A DNA stretch of 64,000 nucleotides from Escherichia coli (GTDB taxonomy: Bacteria > Pseudomonadota > Gammaproteobacteria > Enterobacterales > Enterobacteriaceae). The stretch is taken from NCBI RefSeq assembly GCF_044324875.1, contig NZ_CP172185.1. One strand, given 5' to 3'. This document shows positions 1 through 62,013 of the stretch, piece by piece. A model generated the notes under the pieces. It worked only from the letters and a program-made list of their open reading frames with translations, did not search any database and was not told the DNA's origin. The position numbers were made by a program, and so were the translations under genes. Numbering within the stretch: position 1 is the stretch's first letter; every line of letters begins with the position of its first letter.

Positions 1-2853
1 CCCACGGTTTTCAGCAACTATGTTGATTTTCTCGCGGGCATGTTCCTGTAATGCAACGAATTTAATCTTTTTCGCAATGCCATTAAGTAGCATTAGCGCA
101 ACATCGCTGCCAATATCAGCTAATACATCCAGCCCGGACACCGCCCGTTTATGCTGGGATTCCCCAGGCCAGGCGCGGATAAGCGGGGTTGACTTACGCG
201 CGGTGTCGTCATTGCCTAAAATCCCCAGCGAAGTAAATGCCCAGTTTTCTTTTGCGGGTGCGCCAGCTTCTGTCCATGCGGTATACAGATCCCAGCCAAA
301 GTCAGCCAGTGATTCGCGGGTGAAGGTCTCTTTGATGGTCGCCAGCCCAGCGTAGGCGGTAATGTCGCGTGGAAAGCTCAACATTGTGCCCAGGTGGCGC
401 ATAGCGTCATCTGGCAGAGGCAGGTTGTTACTTTTAAGCCGTGGTCTGCGCCATAAGGTGAACTGATAAAAGCCGGGCGGTGGGGCGATTTTAGCGGGAT
501 ATTCTTCCAGCGGATCGCTATCGAACAATGTTGCCAGCGCAGCTAAAACATCAGGTTGGTTGTATCTCCGGGCGATTTCTTCAATCGTTTCTCGCTGGTT
601 TAATTTCACTAGCAGGCGGAGTGCCTGGCGGGCATATTCCCGATTTTGGCACGGTTTGCCCAGCGCCAAAGGCAGTAGCCCGGCGGTGGCATGGCGCGGG
701 TTATTTGCCAGCCAATTAACGGAATCCTTGTAAGCCATTTTTTTCTGTAACCGCTGCGCCATTGGTAAGGCTAGTTCACTGGCCCCAATAAAGAGGGTGA
801 ATATCCACAGTCGTTGATGATCTCGTTGCAAGCAGGTCATAAACGCAGGAATGGCTGTACTACCAAAAACCGCCAGAATCTCTTTCTCACCTGAATATCG
901 CTCCTCAATGATTATTTGGTTGAGAAATGAAATCGCCTGTTGTCCCGGTAAGTAACAAAGCGCAGATAGATTCCAGCTTTTGTTGGCATTGTTGTGATAT
1001 TTCGCAAACTCAGCTTTTAGTGCTGGAAAATCAAAGCGCAACAACGCATCAACAGCGCTTTGCGGTATATATTTTTTTTCATGTAAGTCATCTTCGCAAT
1101 GCAGCCATTCATTAAAACCTAATTGCCAAAGGATTTGTTGTTCTGGTGTAAAAGGAATGAAAGATGTCTCCCAGCTTTCTTTTTCAATTAGTGGCAGGTC
1201 GGTAAATAAGGTTTGCTGTGATGACTGAAATTGCGCGATTTTACTGAATCTGGATATGTCAGTATGACTGATTAACTCTGTAATTCCTGGCGTGATGTCA
1301 GTGACGGCAGGGATGGGAAGCACCGGTAAATCAAATACGGGTATTACATTCGTTTTCTTATTTATTACCCACGGTGGAGCGACAAACAGCTCCGGCAACA
1401 TATCCGCAGTGGCGTATTCACATTCTTCAGCGACTAACTGAGTACGACATTCAGATAAAATTCCTGCCGCTTTAGCATTAACCCTGGGAATGACGTCAGT
1501 GACTAACTCTGGCGTGGCGGTAATCAGTTTGACAAGCGCTTTACGCCACTCTTTGTCTTCATGTATTGCCAGCAAAGTAGCATAAGCGGCAAGAGCCGCA
1601 GCGGGATGTTTTTGACAGGCTTTGCTTAAGTATTCCAGGTGCTTTTTCTTGCCAATCACACCGAGGATCAGAATTTGAATCGCATCCGGGTGATTCGTTT
1701 TCCATAGCCATTTGACAAGATCTTCAGTCTCGCTGATACGCTCGAAAAGATAAGTGGGATTGTCAGAATGCTCTTCCGTAAACTCAAGAAGTATCCGGCT
1801 TACACCGCGCACCCCATTATTTGCCAGCAACATTGCCAGATAAGCGCGAAAATCATGATACAACGGTGGGAAGTCGTATTTTTCTGCTGTAGTCAGAGCG
1901 GCGTCATCGGTTACCACCAGTCTTAACCAGGTCATCGCCGGAACGTTTTGATCTGCATAACGTAGCGCCATAGCATTGGCAATATCCGGGCGTTCAGGGA
2001 GCAGTAACGCCGCAAAAGGTTGTCGTGCTGGGGATAGCGAGGGAATAGCAGCGAGTACTTTATCTACACAGCGTTGCCACTCATCTTCTGAAGCGAGTGA
2101 AAGATGATGACATAGACGTTGATGCCAACTAGGTAGCGATTCTGCTTCGTGATTAGGTGGAATGATGGTGGTTACTGCGCCTTTTACTGGTTTATATTTG
2201 AGTTGAAGAGCGAGAAGGGCGATTTCAACGGCACTTTCCAGACCACAGCGAATGACTAAGTCATCGACCAGTTCATCTTGAGAGTAAGAGTTCCAAAAGC
2301 CCCAGAGCAATGCTGCATCAGATTGCGCACTCCCTGTCGGTTGATTACCCTTAACTCGAATTTGTAACTCAGCAAAAGCCTGCTGCCAGTTTTCTGGATA
2401 AGAGCGGTAATTGTTGTCGGGATCATATGCCCTGGTGTTATTCGCGATGCGCTTCCATATTTGGCCATCTTTGTACAGATAATTGATCTCTCTGGGGCGA
2501 GAGCGATGAGGAAAAGCAAATCGATTAATATCGTCAGTGACCGGAATGACTGCATCATCAGCCAGCCATGGGCGTTTGTTTTTACTCTCAAGGGAGGTTT
2601 CAACTTCAGGAGTGGCTTTGGTGATGGGGGGGATATGCACGTTTGCTGAAGCATTTTCCACATAGCCTTTTTTCGTTTTCTCTGCGATCAGCTTAAGCTC
2701 CGCTTTTGCCGCTGCCGCAGCATCCGCAAAGCTTTTTACCTGGTTTTGCCCGTTGGTGCCAATTTTTCCCCAACTGATATGCAACTCGTTTCCCTGTTGC
2801 TCCACCGCCCAGAATTTATGTGATTTTTCGTCCTGAAAGATAAAGTGTCTCAT
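1..2853 (-). CDS. molR: Large WGR-domain protein, MolR (molybdate-metabolism regulator) homologue; N-terminal 951 codons only, 3' end beyond window start
   Basis: ATG at 2853-2851 (minus). Hand translation MRHFIFQDEKSHKFWAVEQQGNELHISWGKIGTNGQNQVKSF... (WGR-like). I checked every in-window codon of this frame (plus-strand triplets 1-3, 4-6, ...) and found no stop. Absent from ORF track because it runs off the window edge. Confidence 0.7.
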   Translation of the reverse strand, partial: MRHFIFQDEKSHKFWAVEQQGNELHISWGKIGTNGQNQVKSFADAAAAAKAELKLIAEKTKKGYVENASANVHIPPITKATPEVETSLESKNKRPWLADDAVIPVTDDINRFAFPHRSRPREINYLYKDGQIWKRIANNTRAYDPDNNYRSYPENWQQAFAELQIRVKGNQPTGSAQSDAALLWGFWNSYSQDELVDDLVIRCGLESAVEIALLALQLKYKPVKGAVTTIIPPNHEAESLPSWHQRLCHHLSLASEDEWQRCVDKVLAAIPSLSPARQPFAALLLPERPDIANAMALRYADQNVPAMTWLRLVVTDDAALTTAEKYDFPPLYHDFRAYLAMLLANNGVRGVSRILLEFTEEHSDNPTYLFERISETEDLVKWLWKTNHPDAIQILILGVIGKKKHLEYLSKACQKHPAAALAAYATLLAIHEDKEWRKALVKLITATPELVTDVIPRVNAKAAGILSECRTQLVAEECEYATADMLPELFVAPPWVINKKTNVIPVFDLPVLPIPAVTDITPGITELISHTDISRFSKIAQFQSSQQTLFTDLPLIEKESWETSFIPFTPEQQILWQLGFNEWLHCEDDLHEKKYIPQSAVDALLRFDFPALKAEFAKYHNNANKSWNLSALCYLPGQQAISFLNQIIIEERYSGEKEILAVFGSTAIPAFMTCLQRDHQRLWIFTLFIGASELALPMAQRLQKKMAYKDSVNWLANNPRHATAGLLPLALGKPCQNREYARQALRLLVKLNQRETIEEIARRYNQPDVLAALATLFDSDPLEEYPAKIAPPPGFYQFTLWRRPRLKSNNLPLPDDAMRHLGTMLSFPRDITAYAGLATIKETFTRESLADFGWDLYTAWTEAGAPAKENWAFTSLGILGNDDTARKSTPLIRAWPGESQHKRAVSGLDVLADIGSDVALMLLNGIAKKIKFVALQEHAREKINIVAENRG

Positions 2854-6268: not shown

Positions 6269-6298
6269 CGCGCATTAACCTTTTTGGTTGTTTTTCAT

Positions 6299-6340
6299 AC
6301 ACCGCAGAGATGTTACATTGATGCGGTGTATTTGTTTTTG
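6299..6340 (+). terminator. Putative terminator after apbC
   Basis: Stem acaccgca/tgcggtgt (6299-6306 / 6322-6329) followed by atttgtttttg; long loop lowers confidence. Confidence 0.4.
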
Positions 6341-6843: not shown

Positions 6844-6883
6844 AAAGCTGAAATCATTCGTGTGAATGATTTCAGCTTTTTTA
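6844..6883 (+). terminator. Rho-independent terminator after yehE
   Basis: 16-bp stem aaagctgaaatcattc / gaatgatttcagcttt with 4-nt loop, then T-run. Confidence 0.7.
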
Positions 6884-30059: not shown

Positions 30060-30473
30060 GATCGTATGTGCCTTTATGATTGGTCTGTAGATAGTGTAGA
30101 GCAGAAAAGAAAAGGTGGAGTCAGAACAGGATGAAAGTCGGAGGATAAAAAATCAGTTCAAGTATGGAGGATTCAGTGGTTACCACCAGGAGCTTGCAAT
30201 GGGGACAGTGAATGTTAACGGTAGCCACCGGTAAATTTCAAAAAAGAGCATATACCTAATATTCAACTAAACAGTGGCATCTTCACTATCTTATTCTAAA
30301 TATATTAAAGCCCTCATGGGGATACCTGGGCAGGGCTTCATGTTTGTAATTCCTACTTATGTAGGAAATGTTGTACAGAACATTTATTATAATCCTATTC
30401 AATTATAATAATCATGCCATTATTATATTTTAACACCAGAGCGTGTCGTTGGTATTTAATGGGGGAAGGTAAG

Positions 30474-30791: not shown

Positions 30792-30961
30792 GAATATTTT
30801 TTGGTAAGCGTCAAACATGCGCGTTCTGGTTGTGCTTAGCCGGAACCTGTGCGAGCACGATGCCGTTACGTGAAAGGCATCGTGCTATGAAGGGAGATTC
30901 TATCGATGTGGTCAATGGAAGACGGTCACCTGGGATCAATCCGTCTCTATGGTTTATGCAC

Positions 30962-58283: not shown

Positions 58284-60137
58284 ATGAGACGATTTCTGAC
58301 GACGCTGATGATACTCCTGGTCGTGCTGGTGGCCGGGTTATCTGCGTTAGTGTTGCTGGTGAATCCGAATGATTTCCGCGACTATATGGTCAAGCAAGTT
58401 GCTGCACGTAGCGGTTATCAATTGCAGCTCGACGGGCCACTGCGTTGGCACGTCTGGCCGCAACTTAGTATCCTCTCCGGGCGAATGTCTCTCACTGCCC
58501 AGGGCGCGAGCCAGCCACTGGTTCGCGCAGACAACATGCGTCTGGACGTGGCGCTTTTACCACTGCTGAGTCATCAACTGAGCGTTAAGCAGGTGATGCT
58601 AAAAGGGGCAGTGATTCAACTGACGCCGCAGACGGAAGCGGTGCGCAGTGAAGACGCTCCGGTTGCACCGCGCGACAATACCTTGCCGGATCTGTCAGAC
58701 GATCGCGGATGGTCGTTTGATATATCCAGTCTTAAGGTGGCGGACAGCGTGCTGGTGTTCCAGCATGAAGATGACGAGCAGGTGACAATCCGCAATATTC
58801 GCCTGCAAATGGAACAAGATCCCCAACATCGTGGTTCATTTGAGTTCTCCGGGCGGGTTAATCGCGATCAGCGCGATCTCACGATATCCCTTAACGGTAC
58901 GGTAGATGCTTCTGATTATCCGCATGATTTAACGGCGGCTATTGAACAAGTTAACTGGCAGTTGCAGGGTGCAGATTTACCAAAACAAGGTATTCAGGGG
59001 CAGGGGAGTTTCCAGGCCCAGTGGCAGGAGTCACATAAACGCCTTTCATTTAACCAAATTAGTTTGACCGCCAATGACAGTACGCTGAGCGGGCAAGCAC
59101 AGGTCACACTGACAGAGAAACCGGAATGGCAGCTGAGACTGCAATTTCCGCAACTGAATCTTGACAACCTCATCCCGCTTAATGAAACAGCGAACGGTGA
59201 AAACGGTGCCGCGCAGCAGGGGCAGAGCCAATCAACGTTGCCGCGCCCGGTCATTTCTTCGCGTATTGATGAACCGGCCTATCAGGGACTGCAAGGCTTT
59301 ACGGCTGATATTTTGTTGCAGGCCAGTAACGTGCGCTGGCGCGGAATGAATTTTACAGATGTTGCCACGCAAATGACCAACAAGTCGGGTTTGCTGGAAA
59401 TTACTCAACTGCAGGGCAAACTTAACGGTGGACAGGTTTCACTGCCGGGCACGCTGGACGCGACATCAATAAATCCGCGGATAAACTTCCAGCCACGGCT
59501 GGAAAACGTTGAGATTGGTACCATTCTGAAGGCGTTTAACTATCCGATTTCGTTGACCGGAAAGATGTCACTGGCTGGTGATTTCTCCGGTGCTGACATA
59601 GATGCCGACGCATTCCGCCATAACTGGCAAGGACAGGCACATGTCGAAATGACCGACACGCGCATGGAAGGGATGAACTTCCAGCAGATGATTCAGCAAG
59701 CGGTAGAACGTAATGGTGGTGATGTGAAGGCCGCTGAAAACTTCGATAACGTAACGCGTCTTGACCGCTTTACCACCGATTTGACGTTGAAGGATGGCGT
59801 CGTGACGTTAAACGACATGCAAGGTCAATCGCCCATGCTGGCGCTTTCCGGGGCTGGTACGTTGAATCTGGCGGAGCAAACCTGTGACACCCAGTTTGAT
59901 ATTCGGGTCGTGGGGGGCTGGAACGGGGAAAGCAAACTGATTGATTTCCTCAAAGAAACGCCAGTACCGCTGCGGGTTTATGGCAACTGGCAGCAACTCA
60001 ATTACAGTCTGCAAGTGGATCAGTTACTGCGCAAACATCTACAGGACGAAGCGAAACGTCGCCTGAATGACTGGGCCGAGCGGAATAAAGATTCCCGCAA
60101 TGGCAAAGATGTGAAGAAGTTGCTGGAGAAGATGTAG
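58284..60137 (+). CDS. asmA: Outer membrane assembly protein AsmA
   Basis: 617-aa ORF with N-terminal TM anchor; follows dcd. Confidence 0.9.
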   Translation: MRRFLTTLMILLVVLVAGLSALVLLVNPNDFRDYMVKQVAARSGYQLQLDGPLRWHVWPQLSILSGRMSLTAQGASQPLVRADNMRLDVALLPLLSHQLSVKQVMLKGAVIQLTPQTEAVRSEDAPVAPRDNTLPDLSDDRGWSFDISSLKVADSVLVFQHEDDEQVTIRNIRLQMEQDPQHRGSFEFSGRVNRDQRDLTISLNGTVDASDYPHDLTAAIEQVNWQLQGADLPKQGIQGQGSFQAQWQESHKRLSFNQISLTANDSTLSGQAQVTLTEKPEWQLRLQFPQLNLDNLIPLNETANGENGAAQQGQSQSTLPRPVISSRIDEPAYQGLQGFTADILLQASNVRWRGMNFTDVATQMTNKSGLLEITQLQGKLNGGQVSLPGTLDATSINPRINFQPRLENVEIGTILKAFNYPISLTGKMSLAGDFSGADIDADAFRHNWQGQAHVEMTDTRMEGMNFQQMIQQAVERNGGDVKAAENFDNVTRLDRFTTDLTLKDGVVTLNDMQGQSPMLALSGAGTLNLAEQTCDTQFDIRVVGGWNGESKLIDFLKETPVPLRVYGNWQQLNYSLQVDQLLRKHLQDEAKRRLNDWAERNKDSRNGKDVKKLLEKM

Positions 60138-60157
60138 GTTACCAGGTGACCTGTCCT

Positions 60158-60195
60158 GTAGGCCTGATAAGACGCGTAAAGCGTCGCATCAGGCG
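60158..60195. repeat. REP element
   Basis: gtaggcctgataagacgcgtaaagcgtcgcatcaggcg, classic REP palindrome. Confidence 0.7.
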
Positions 60196-60429
60196 TTCGT
60201 GGCGGCACCATTATATTCTGAATATGTAAGATCGAAGGCTGTTCCGTTCACTTGATGTTCCTCGCTACTATGGAACGCTCAAGCCGGTGAACGTGCCAGG
60301 GTGGCTCAATCTCCACCACCCTGGCAACCCGGACCCACACCCCCGCTGTGATGTCCGTTTACCACAGACAATGCTTCATTGCTGAAGTTATAAGGCGTTA
60401 CGCAGCATTGGGTAAAATGGCCGATACCA

Positions 60430-62013
60430 TCACACCTCGTACTCCATCTCGCTATCCTTACGCAGCGGTATAATCTGCACCTTCTGCACGCGATGGCTTT
60501 CCACCTGCAACGTTTTAAGCAAATAATCCCCCACCTGAACTTCTTCGCCAGGTTTTGGAATACGCTGCAAATATTCCATCAGCAGCCCGGCAATGGTGTG
60601 ATATTCGCGTTTCTCATCCAGCGGTAGCGGCACATATTGCACCAGATCTTCCAGTGGCATATGACCATTCGCCGTCCAGGAACCGTCGGCGTTTTTCTGA
60701 ATATCATGGCGGGCGTCGATCTCTTCCACTTCGTTCGGCAAGTTACCGGCAATAGTTTCCGTGACGTCACTTAATGTCACAATCCCTTCCACCGAGCCAA
60801 ACTCATCCACTACAAAAGCAAAGTGCGTGCGGGCATTACGGAACTGCTCCAGGGCAGGTAACAACGGCAAGGTTTCCGGGAACACCAGCGGCTGGCGAAT
60901 CAACACCCGCAGGTTGAGCGGTTCGCCGCGCAGAGACTGTTGTAGCAGGTCGATAACGTGAACAACACCGAGCAAATCTTCTGCGTCATCACCGTCGGTA
61001 ACCACCAACCGCGTATGCTGATTTCGCTCCAGCAACTGGCGGATTTCTTCTTCCGGCGCGTTGAGATCGATATGCTCAATATCGTGGCGCGACGTCATAA
61101 TGCTGCTGACGGTACGCTGGTTAAGATTAAGTACCCGCTCAATCATCCGCCGTTCCTGCGGATTAAAGATCTGCTGGTTACCATGATCCACCAGCATGGA
61201 CGCGGTTTCGGCGTCCAGTTCCGCATCTTCTTTTTGCCCGCTAAGCAGGCGCATTACCGCTTCGGTAGTCCGCTGGCGCAGCGTCTGGTTAGCGGAAAGA
61301 AAACGTCGCCGGTTAAAGATAGCCAACTGATTGAGCGCCTCGATCATCACCGAGAAACCAATAGCAGCGTACAGGTAGCCTTTCGGAATGACGAAGCCGA
61401 AACCTTCTGCCACCAGGCTAAAGCCAATCATCAACAGGAAGCTTAAGCAGAGAATAACGATCGTCGGGTGACTGTTAACAAATTGCGTTAACGGCTTGCT
61501 GGCCATCAACATCAGGCTAATAGCGATAACGACGGCGGCCATCATGACCAGTAAATGGTCGACCATCCCGACGGCGGTAATCACCGAGTCGAGTGAGAAG
61601 ATGGCGTCCAGTACCACAATTTGTGTCACCACCCCCCAGAACTTCGCACCTTTGCGTTGCGTGGGGTTATTGCTGTCTTTCCCTTCCAGCCGTTCGTTCA
61701 GCTCCATCGTGGCTTTGAACAGCAGGAAGAAACCACCAAACAGCATGATTAAGTCGCGGGCGCTAAAGGTAAACGAGCGAAAGCTGAATAGCGGTTGTGT
61801 CAGGGTGACCAGCCAGGAGATTGACGCCAGCAGTAACAGGCGCATTAACATCGCCAGCAGCAGCCCGGTAACCCGTGCGCGGTCGCGCTGCTTCGGCGGT
61901 AGTTTTTCGGCGAGGATGGCAATAAAGACCAGGTTATCAATGCCGAGGACCAGTTCGATCACAATCAGCGTGATTAACCCGGCCCAGATAGACGGATCGG
62001 CAATCCATTCCAT
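60430..62013 (-). CDS. yegH: Inner membrane protein YegH (TerC-like membrane domain, CBS pair, CorC/HlyC-type C-terminus)
   Basis: ORF 60430..62079; start taken at [34 protein letters not shown] (527 aa); domain assignment from memory. Confidence 0.8.

Follow-up and report, generated by a model that had tools for sequence, protein, structure and literature searches.

A perfect hairpin between asmA and yegH of Escherichia coli is probably the relic of a dispersed, structured TwoAYGGAY-like repeat

In the 64,000-nt stretch of Escherichia coli DNA that was analysed here (contig NZ_CP172185.1, hereafter the window), a perfect hairpin sits between the convergent genes asmA and yegH, which raises the question of what it is and whether it does anything there. 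The asmA coding sequence (58284..60137, plus strand), assigned from the ORF list and from the RefSeq annotation of orthologous loci, has its stop at 60137. That of yegH, which codes for a TerC-family protein on the minus strand, has its stop at 60430 and is placed at 60430..62013, its start being deduced from the length of the orthologues (1584 nt for RefSeq yegH in K-12 and other strains). The spacer of about 290 bp with a REP that had been reported in the first-pass annotation is indeed there: it is 292 bp long (60138-60429), and the REP occupies approximately positions 60161-60198. The 10-bp hairpin had also been read correctly, with the arms gccagggtgg (60295-60304) and ccaccctggc (60316-60325) around the loop ctcaatctcca (60305-60315). 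A T-A pair (60294/60326) lengthens the stem to 11 Watson-Crick pairs (60294-60304 with 60316-60326), and folding of the minus strand adds an inner G.U pair (60305/60315), which makes 12 pairs and a 9-nt loop. This hairpin, which we call H2 (60294..60326, minus strand), is defined by its sequence, its fold and its homology to the H2 of 79 elements described below. Its local fold is predicted at -24.4 kcal/mol on the minus strand (z -4.8) and -22.0 kcal/mol on the plus strand (z -5.7).

As a stable, G+C-rich stem-loop located 3' of a gene and between convergent genes, H2 is reminiscent of an intrinsic terminator, but no T-run follows the stem on the plus or the minus strand, and the loop of 9-11 nt is longer than typical. 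Since in addition a terminator scan of positions 59900-60700 returned 0 sites, the hairpin is not a canonical intrinsic terminator, as had been proposed. As a bare inverted repeat, H2 is within chance. Counting hairpins with 10 or more perfect pairs and a loop of 3-20 nt gives 6 in the window, against 1.19 +/- 0.96 in 100 dinucleotide shuffles, and the significance of H2 must therefore rest on homology and covariation. The other five perfect hairpins are found at 2961-2984, 6297-6331, 6844-6879, 30384-30411 and 30854-30886, the one at 6844-6879 having 16 nested pairs.

The Rfam scan of 60138-60429 that the first-pass annotation had put forward as a check gave no match for the hairpin. Ranked by E-value, scans of the spacer and of its full-length allele (see below) returned REP/naRNA4 noise only. 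The naRNA4 model is derived from a REP and was used as a proxy for the REP consensus; its match at the spacer REP is sub-threshold (33 bits, compared with 59.5), and the naRNA4 matches span 60161-60233 and miss the hairpin, so that H2 does not belong to the REP/BIME class by this measure. The REP (60161..60198, no strand assigned) is a repeat in its own right, separate from the element to which H2 belongs, as indicated by these sub-threshold matches and by its retention in a 67-bp allele of the spacer. It directly follows the asmA stop and is the sole part of the spacer that this short allele, found in strain AVS0096, has kept.

The link to a known RNA family surfaced only when paralogous copies were scanned. 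With the full-length asmA-yegH allele as a query and at about 80% identity, E. coli genomes contain 1-10 copies (median 3) of a repeat element of about 305 nt, of which H2 is the second-last stem-loop. The paralogues are located in the spacers of proX (proX-MFS), putP-efeU, alx-sstT, aqpZ-lysO and dusC-yohP. They align end to end with the Rfam model of TwoAYGGAY (RF01731), on the strand equivalent to the minus strand of the window, with scores of 28-37 bits (28.2-36.6) for a gathering score of 43. The TwoAYGGAY motif dates from 2010, when it was reported in gut metagenomes, Clostridia and gamma-proteobacteria as an RNA of orphan function with a long P1 stem and two AYGGAY loops (PMC2864571). 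Intact copies of the element have the same architecture, namely a long closing P1 stem (AAAAUCGCC/GGCGAUUUU, with covarying extensions) around two hairpins with AYGGAY-type loops (CAUGGAUG and ACAGGGAUG). Among 102 extracted elements, loop 1 reads CA.GGATG in 102, which is a consequence of the search pattern, and loop 2 reads CA.GGANG in 83. A copy from Pluralibacter that aligns with those of E. coli reaches 51.9 bits, above the 43 required, so that the element family in its wider sense overlaps RF01731, whereas the window copy falls outside it. As the 3' limit of the Rfam model is immediately 5' of H2, both H2 and the hairpin that follows it, H3, are outside the model. In Weinberg's alignment, the Psychromonas copies, which are also multi-copy, show a hairpin of 13-14 bp directly after the core and then a second, short one, indicating that the three-part layout reaches beyond the Enterobacterales.

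Evidence that H2 belongs to this element comes from covariation. In an alignment of six loci, the pairing of H2 is kept and its sequence varies (GGTGG/CCACC, GGCGG/CCGCC, GGAGG/CCTCC), and two further hairpins behave alike. We then used alignment A3, which comprises 58 distinct full-length copies and has an RNAalifold consensus of 49 pairs; the long-flank alignment was built by MAFFT with fast settings. In A3, 97.6% of the cells are paired compared with 85.9% in shuffles, none of 500 shuffles reaching the observed value. Double-sided changes affect 27 pairs, as opposed to 7-11 when the partners are slid by 1-3 columns, and the covariation score is 0.354 against 0.138 in shuffles. Compensatory changes are found in 6 of the 7 counted pairs of H2 (helices 10 and 11 of A3), in which 98-100% of the cells are paired, and in 4 of the 7 pairs of H3 (helix 12), with for instance CGUUCAC/GUGAACG versus GCGCUCC/GGAGCGC. 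The 79 elements contain 42 distinct H2 sequences, nearly all of which form an uninterrupted stem of 10-15 bp with an 8-nt loop starting with GGCG. There are 89 G.U pairs for 18 A.C pairs in total, and 28 for 1 in H2 alone, showing that the folded strand is the minus strand of the window, sense to yegH, although G.T wobbles are tolerated in single-stranded DNA too and the asymmetry cannot separate RNA from single-stranded DNA.

Both hairpins of this 3' module are present in the window. H3 is an imperfect long hairpin (60245..60293, minus strand), identified by its fold and equivalent to helix 12 of A3; in the RNA sense, its outer stem reads CGUUCAC...GUGAACG, then GAAC. It follows H2 as in the other copies, positions 60245-60251 pairing with 60287-60293 and running into GGAAC in the RNA sense. 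A covariance model of H2 and H3, R1, was made from 55 copies, with the asmA-yegH orthologues left out. It has a single match in the 64-kb window, at 60239..60343 on the minus strand, which covers the full model (positions 1-103) with 67.7 bits and E=2.3e-12. In K-12, R1 finds three intact copies, these paralogues scoring 84-98 bits, as well as a truncated asmA-yegH copy. With 12 pairs on the minus strand, H2 of the window conforms to the 10-15 bp stem of the module, for which the loop is of about 8-9 nt and of GGCG type. The loop of the window copy in the RNA sense is GGAGAUUGA, one substitution away from the GGCGAUUGA of the full-length allele and the paralogues; where the family consensus loop begins with GGCG, it has GGAG. 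A fortuitous inverted repeat, which the shuffles would have allowed, with about 1.2 perfect hairpins of 10 bp expected in a 64-kb window, is refuted by the covariation of H2, with its 42 covarying variants, and by the R1 match (E=2.3e-12). The position of H2 within the element is moreover conserved across genera, and we give practically no credit to chance.

Comparison of strains explains why the window copy escaped detection as TwoAYGGAY. Across the 5426 complete E. coli genomes searched by megablast, the spacer between asmA and yegH exists as alleles of 451 bp (strain 98212), 292 bp (the window, 18KM2445), 273 bp (K-12) and 67 bp (AVS0096, a natural isolate), the last having the REP only, with neither H2 nor H3. 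Aligned with the full-length 98212 allele, the window lacks 159 bp, starting seven bases past the hairpin. The junction, at 60329..60332 (no strand assigned), was located by alignment with the 98212 full-length allele and K-12 and displays CCGG microhomology. The lost segment contains the long P1 stem and both AYGGAY hairpins, in other words the entire TwoAYGGAY core. A junction of the window type occurs in 236 of the 5426 genomes, and about 1485 have kept the full-length element. The K-12 deletion at asmA-yegH is different from that of the window and overlaps it, and H2 and H3 are retained in both of these independent deletion alleles. On the other side of the junction, a remnant of the 5' leader, including the base of the 5' strand of P1, is found at 60333..60388 on the minus strand according to alignments A2 and A3 and to the 5' conservation profile, its outer 5' boundary being approximate; in the RNA sense it reads UUCAGCAAUG...CACAGCGGGGGUGUGGGUCCGG. 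The remnant of the element is thus in the 3' flank of yegH and on the same strand. The ends of the deletion fall at the base of the long palindrome of P1 or close to it, which suggests that the deletion arose by replication slippage across P1, between CCGG repeats.

Accordingly, the window has no match to RF01731 at E<=10, and the TwoAYGGAY pattern is absent from it even with three mismatches, since P1 and the two AYGGAY hairpins were lost with the 159-bp segment. Neither of the two AYGGAY-loop hairpins is found in this copy, and only the base of the 5' strand (GGGUCCGG) survives of the long closing P1 stem. As the three features of TwoAYGGAY are lacking with the core, the hairpin should not be filed as a TwoAYGGAY RNA. 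No Rfam TwoAYGGAY match at E<=10 was obtained for the full-length asmA-yegH allele either. The E. coli copies differ from TwoAYGGAY as it stands in being below the curated threshold and in having a 3' module, H2 and H3, that is not modelled. Furthermore, Rfam labels the motif cis-regulatory, whereas the element shows no consistent gene association or orientation. TwoAYGGAY is the closest known family, and we class the hairpin as what is left, after truncation, of an enterobacterial variant of it that is extended and dispersed and whose 3' module made up of H2 and H3 is newly defined here.

Altogether, we consider it very probable that the hairpin is H2 of a non-coding, structured repeat of about 305 nt whose core has been deleted at this locus, and hence a relic. 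It is not a stand-alone feature of the spacer, as the element is multi-copy and dispersed and the window copy is a deletion derivative. In the RNA sense, an intact copy comprises a short leader, P1 enclosing two hairpins with CA-N-GGA-Y-G loops, then H2, with a G+C-rich stem of 10-15 bp and a loop of about 8 nt that usually begins with GGCG, and lastly H3. The 159-bp deletion between CCGG repeats at the base of P1 has left only the leader stub, H2 and H3 in the window. It is tempting to speculate that, in intact copies, H2 and H3 serve as the structural 3' module of a single-stranded molecule, most likely RNA. Located directly outside P1, very stable and devoid of a U-tract, they would suit a role such as a 3'-end or exonuclease barrier, or a module for contacts with proteins. 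With the core lost, the window hairpin presumably has nothing left to serve, and it would at most give the yegH transcript a stable 3' structure with a passive effect, like the adjacent REP. REPs stabilise upstream mRNA, and the relic may similarly protect the yegH 3' end in a passive manner.

The suggestion that the hairpin might be part of an unannotated small RNA was the closest of the initial guesses, in that H2 is one conserved stem-loop of an unannotated structured element of about 305 nt; the other two, an RNA stability element and a protein-binding site, would be speculative. An independent small RNA gene in the asmA/yegH spacer would account for the structure of the region (z -2.9 for 60237-60345 on the minus strand) and for its conservation in most E. 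coli. Nevertheless, scans for promoters and terminators in the window spacer, the full-length allele and two paralogues revealed no conserved signals, and no sigma-70-like promoter or intrinsic terminator. In addition, the region has no Rfam family, it is a truncated fragment of a larger element, and the spacer is highly polymorphic, with its alleles of 67, 273, 292 and 451 bp. We deem such a gene very improbable.

How the element is distributed bears on whether the relic has acquired a local role. Of 56 elements whose context was established, 31 are in convergent spacers, 12 in each of the two co-directional orientations and 1 in a divergent spacer. All but one of the 56 (55/56) are thus in spacers containing gene 3' ends, for which the family has a clear preference. 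The absence of an orientation preference in co-directional spacers (12 vs 12) argues against an obligatory cis role in 3' UTRs. It is nonetheless possible, if rather doubtful, that H2, with the help of H3 and the REP, now functions as a 3'-end-forming or exonuclease-blocking structure without a U-tract for yegH, and perhaps asmA, having been co-opted and kept by selection after the loss of the core. The convergent genes have no canonical intrinsic terminator here, the stem is very stable on the yegH strand (-24.4 kcal/mol), and the enrichment of the family at gene 3' ends (55/56, of which 31 convergent) is in line with this idea. The survival of H2 and H3 in both the window-type and the K-12-type independent deletions makes a local function possible and keeps the hypothesis of co-option alive. 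However, H2 has no U-tract, its loop departs from the family consensus (GGAG in place of GGCG), and the natural allele with only the REP does without H2 and H3. The same hairpin is also found in the copies at aqpZ-lysO and putP-efeU, where it is antisense to both neighbours, which indicates that the conservation of H2 belongs to the element and not to the locus. As for transcript ends at yegH or asmA, a literature search found none.

The relic interpretation leaves the nature of the intact element to be considered, and its mobility in particular. H2 could be a recognition hairpin or palindrome at the DNA level for a transposase or recombinase acting in trans, the element being MITE-like or REPIN-like and its structure operating in single-stranded DNA, as in REP/RAYT systems or the subterminal hairpins of IS200/IS605. 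Its multi-copy, dispersed nature, its presence/absence polymorphism, the existence of tandem and nested copies, the lack of a promoter or terminator of its own and the lack of orientation bias in co-directional spacers are compatible with such a scenario, as are the spacer niches that it has in common with BIMEs and REPs. The G.T/A.C asymmetry would also fit strand-specific single-stranded DNA. On the other hand, there is no target-site duplication or clean filled/empty junction, entire spacers differing between alleles. No associated protein gene was seen, and the element is found neither on phages nor on genuine mobilisable plasmids. In addition, the sequence of the stem varies freely with pairing kept, unlike that of a sequence-specific site in double-stranded DNA, and the family that the core matches is one of RNAs, with loop motifs of the kind that RNA-binding proteins typically recognise. 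We therefore regard a DNA-level role for H2 as unlikely.

The proX-MFS spacer illustrates how alleles differ (L004, 1300-1790, compared with L123 and L124). The element is present there in about 10% of E. coli genomes, and most others have one or two BIME/REP units instead; the entire spacer is swapped between the element and BIMEs, without target-site duplication. No target-site duplication was found at proX or at asmA/yegH, and a clean filled/empty transposition site was discarded at both, as the proX spacer is swapped whole and what the shortest asmA/yegH allele has lost goes beyond the element. At proX, the element and BIMEs are thus alternative occupants of one spacer, and both are short, G+C-rich extragenic palindromes that are multi-copy, strain-variable and located at gene 3' ends. 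Yet H2 has no sequence similarity to REP, the REP of the asmA/yegH spacer being a separate unit (60161-60198). H2 is one module of a composite structure of about 305 nt with approximately 3 copies as opposed to hundreds, and its stem covaries freely and follows no consensus. With the MITE-like ERIC/IRU repeats, the element shares its non-coding nature, its size of a few hundred bp, its foldability, its intergenic location and its variability between strains, but no terminal inverted repeats or target-site duplications were identified in it. To our knowledge, ERIC sequences bear no resemblance to the element. The 'RSA' repeat of E. coli K-12 (about 150 bp, few copies), from the Bachellier/Blattner-era literature, might be this element; our literature search found no description of RSA with which to compare it.

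What the core of intact copies might bind is suggested by its loops. The CsrA SELEX consensus, RUACARGGAUGU, is bound best in hairpin loops (PMC4347634), and the intact-core loops UUACAGGGAUGU and CACAUGGAUGU are near-matches to it. CsrA binding had been proposed earlier for TwoAYGGAY by RMfam (PMC4333381), and the motif is a member of Rfam clan CL00106, a point of likeness with RNAs of the CsrB/CsrC type. Like CsrB and CsrC, intact copies present GGA motifs in hairpin loops near the CsrA consensus, but the element has two putative sites rather than many, and it has no promoter. Judging from the loop sequences, it is plausible that a CsrA dimer bridges the two core loops in intact copies, whose paired GGA loops would then form its binding site. 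In the window copy, both GGA-loop sites are gone. A gene table of K-12 CsrA CLIP-seq lists no peak for the flanking genes ybjE, efeU', dusC, alx and sstT, a result that weighs against CsrA binding but is weakly informative, the table being at gene level. K-12 itself has no copy at alx-sstT. The substitution in the apical loop of H2, at position 60311 (t on the plus strand), is common to the window and K-12, the 98212 full-length allele keeping GGCG. It creates a GGA triplet, which is the minimal CsrA-type motif and may be a coincidence.

One might go further and imagine, as a long shot, that the intact element, with its core, H2 and H3, is an RNA-structured module that recombines or moves non-autonomously and so brings a two-site decoy for CsrA dimers into transcribed spacers, H2 and H3 acting as its mobility or 3'-end part. 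The decoy would have been lost repeatedly at asmA/yegH through deletions driven by the palindrome, and H2 and H3 would have been kept because they now shape the 3' end of the yegH mRNA. If so, E. coli strains would differ in their number of decoys (1-10).

Beyond E. coli, a search of reference genomes with a degenerate pattern of the core returned 114 stretches, mostly from several genera of Enterobacteriaceae, with a few chance matches in unrelated taxa. The genera concerned are Escherichia, Citrobacter, Enterobacter, Pseudescherichia, Kluyvera, Pluralibacter, Mangrovibacter, Shimwellia, Klebsiella and relatives. There are often 5-10 copies per genome, and from several to about 13 in Klebsiella, Enterobacter, Kluyvera, Pluralibacter and Mangrovibacter; in one Klebsiella pneumoniae chromosome, the element occurs in 13 places. 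No copies were found on phages or on genuine mobilisable plasmids, the 'plasmid' matches being large, non-mobilisable and mostly megabase-sized records that are likely chromosomal.

For the locus itself, these results mean that the hairpin need not count as an independent regulator, being a fragment of a decaying repeat. The feature is an ordinary one, and the family is moderately interesting because E. coli K-12 offers intact copies of it together with natural deletion alleles. Since 2010, TwoAYGGAY has remained an orphan motif, and K-12 turns out to hold three intact sub-threshold relatives, at dusC-yohP, aqpZ-lysO and putP-efeU. With these copies and the natural knock-out alleles, the function of the motif, including the CsrA proposal, becomes directly testable in E. 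coli K-12, the bacterium that has been studied best. This class of structured intergenic repeats has been overlooked by RefSeq annotation, which does not mark the element in any of the E. coli records that we examined.

Several observations on individual copies are worth recording. In K-12 MG1655, the intact, unannotated copies at dusC-yohP, aqpZ-lysO and putP-efeU correspond to L126 1529-1789 (minus strand), L128 2538-2785 (plus) and L125 approximately 2357-2620 (minus) in our set of loci. This strain also carries the truncated asmA-yegH copy, and it has no copy at alx-sstT, though other strains have one there. In one of the latter, EC261, RefSeq reports a 100-aa 'hypothetical protein' across the alx-sstT copy (L006 1392-1694, minus strand), which is probably an artefact of ORF calling on the structured repeat. 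The copies of Pseudescherichia vulneris (L020) and Pluralibacter gergoviae (L034) have an additional domain of about 90 nt within their core, with its own AAAAUYG/CRAUUUU stem and a hairpin with an AGGGAU loop, which resembles a nested mini-copy or an expansion segment. In two loci (L060 2183-2330 and L099 5670-5733, both plus strand), the main element is accompanied, about 50 nt from its 5' end, by a second and divergent TwoAYGGAY unit that runs on the opposite strand; the 49.2 bits of this unit exceed the gathering score and come from model positions 46-112 alone. Finally, Enterobacter-like and related copies (L011-L016, L095-L097 and L111) share a hairpin CUGAGCCGCAUGUUCCCCCUCACCC...CCCUCUCCCC-N-GGAGAGGG located 3' of H3, which indicates that the repeat is composite in some genera, and the proX copy of E. 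coli keeps a fragment of it.
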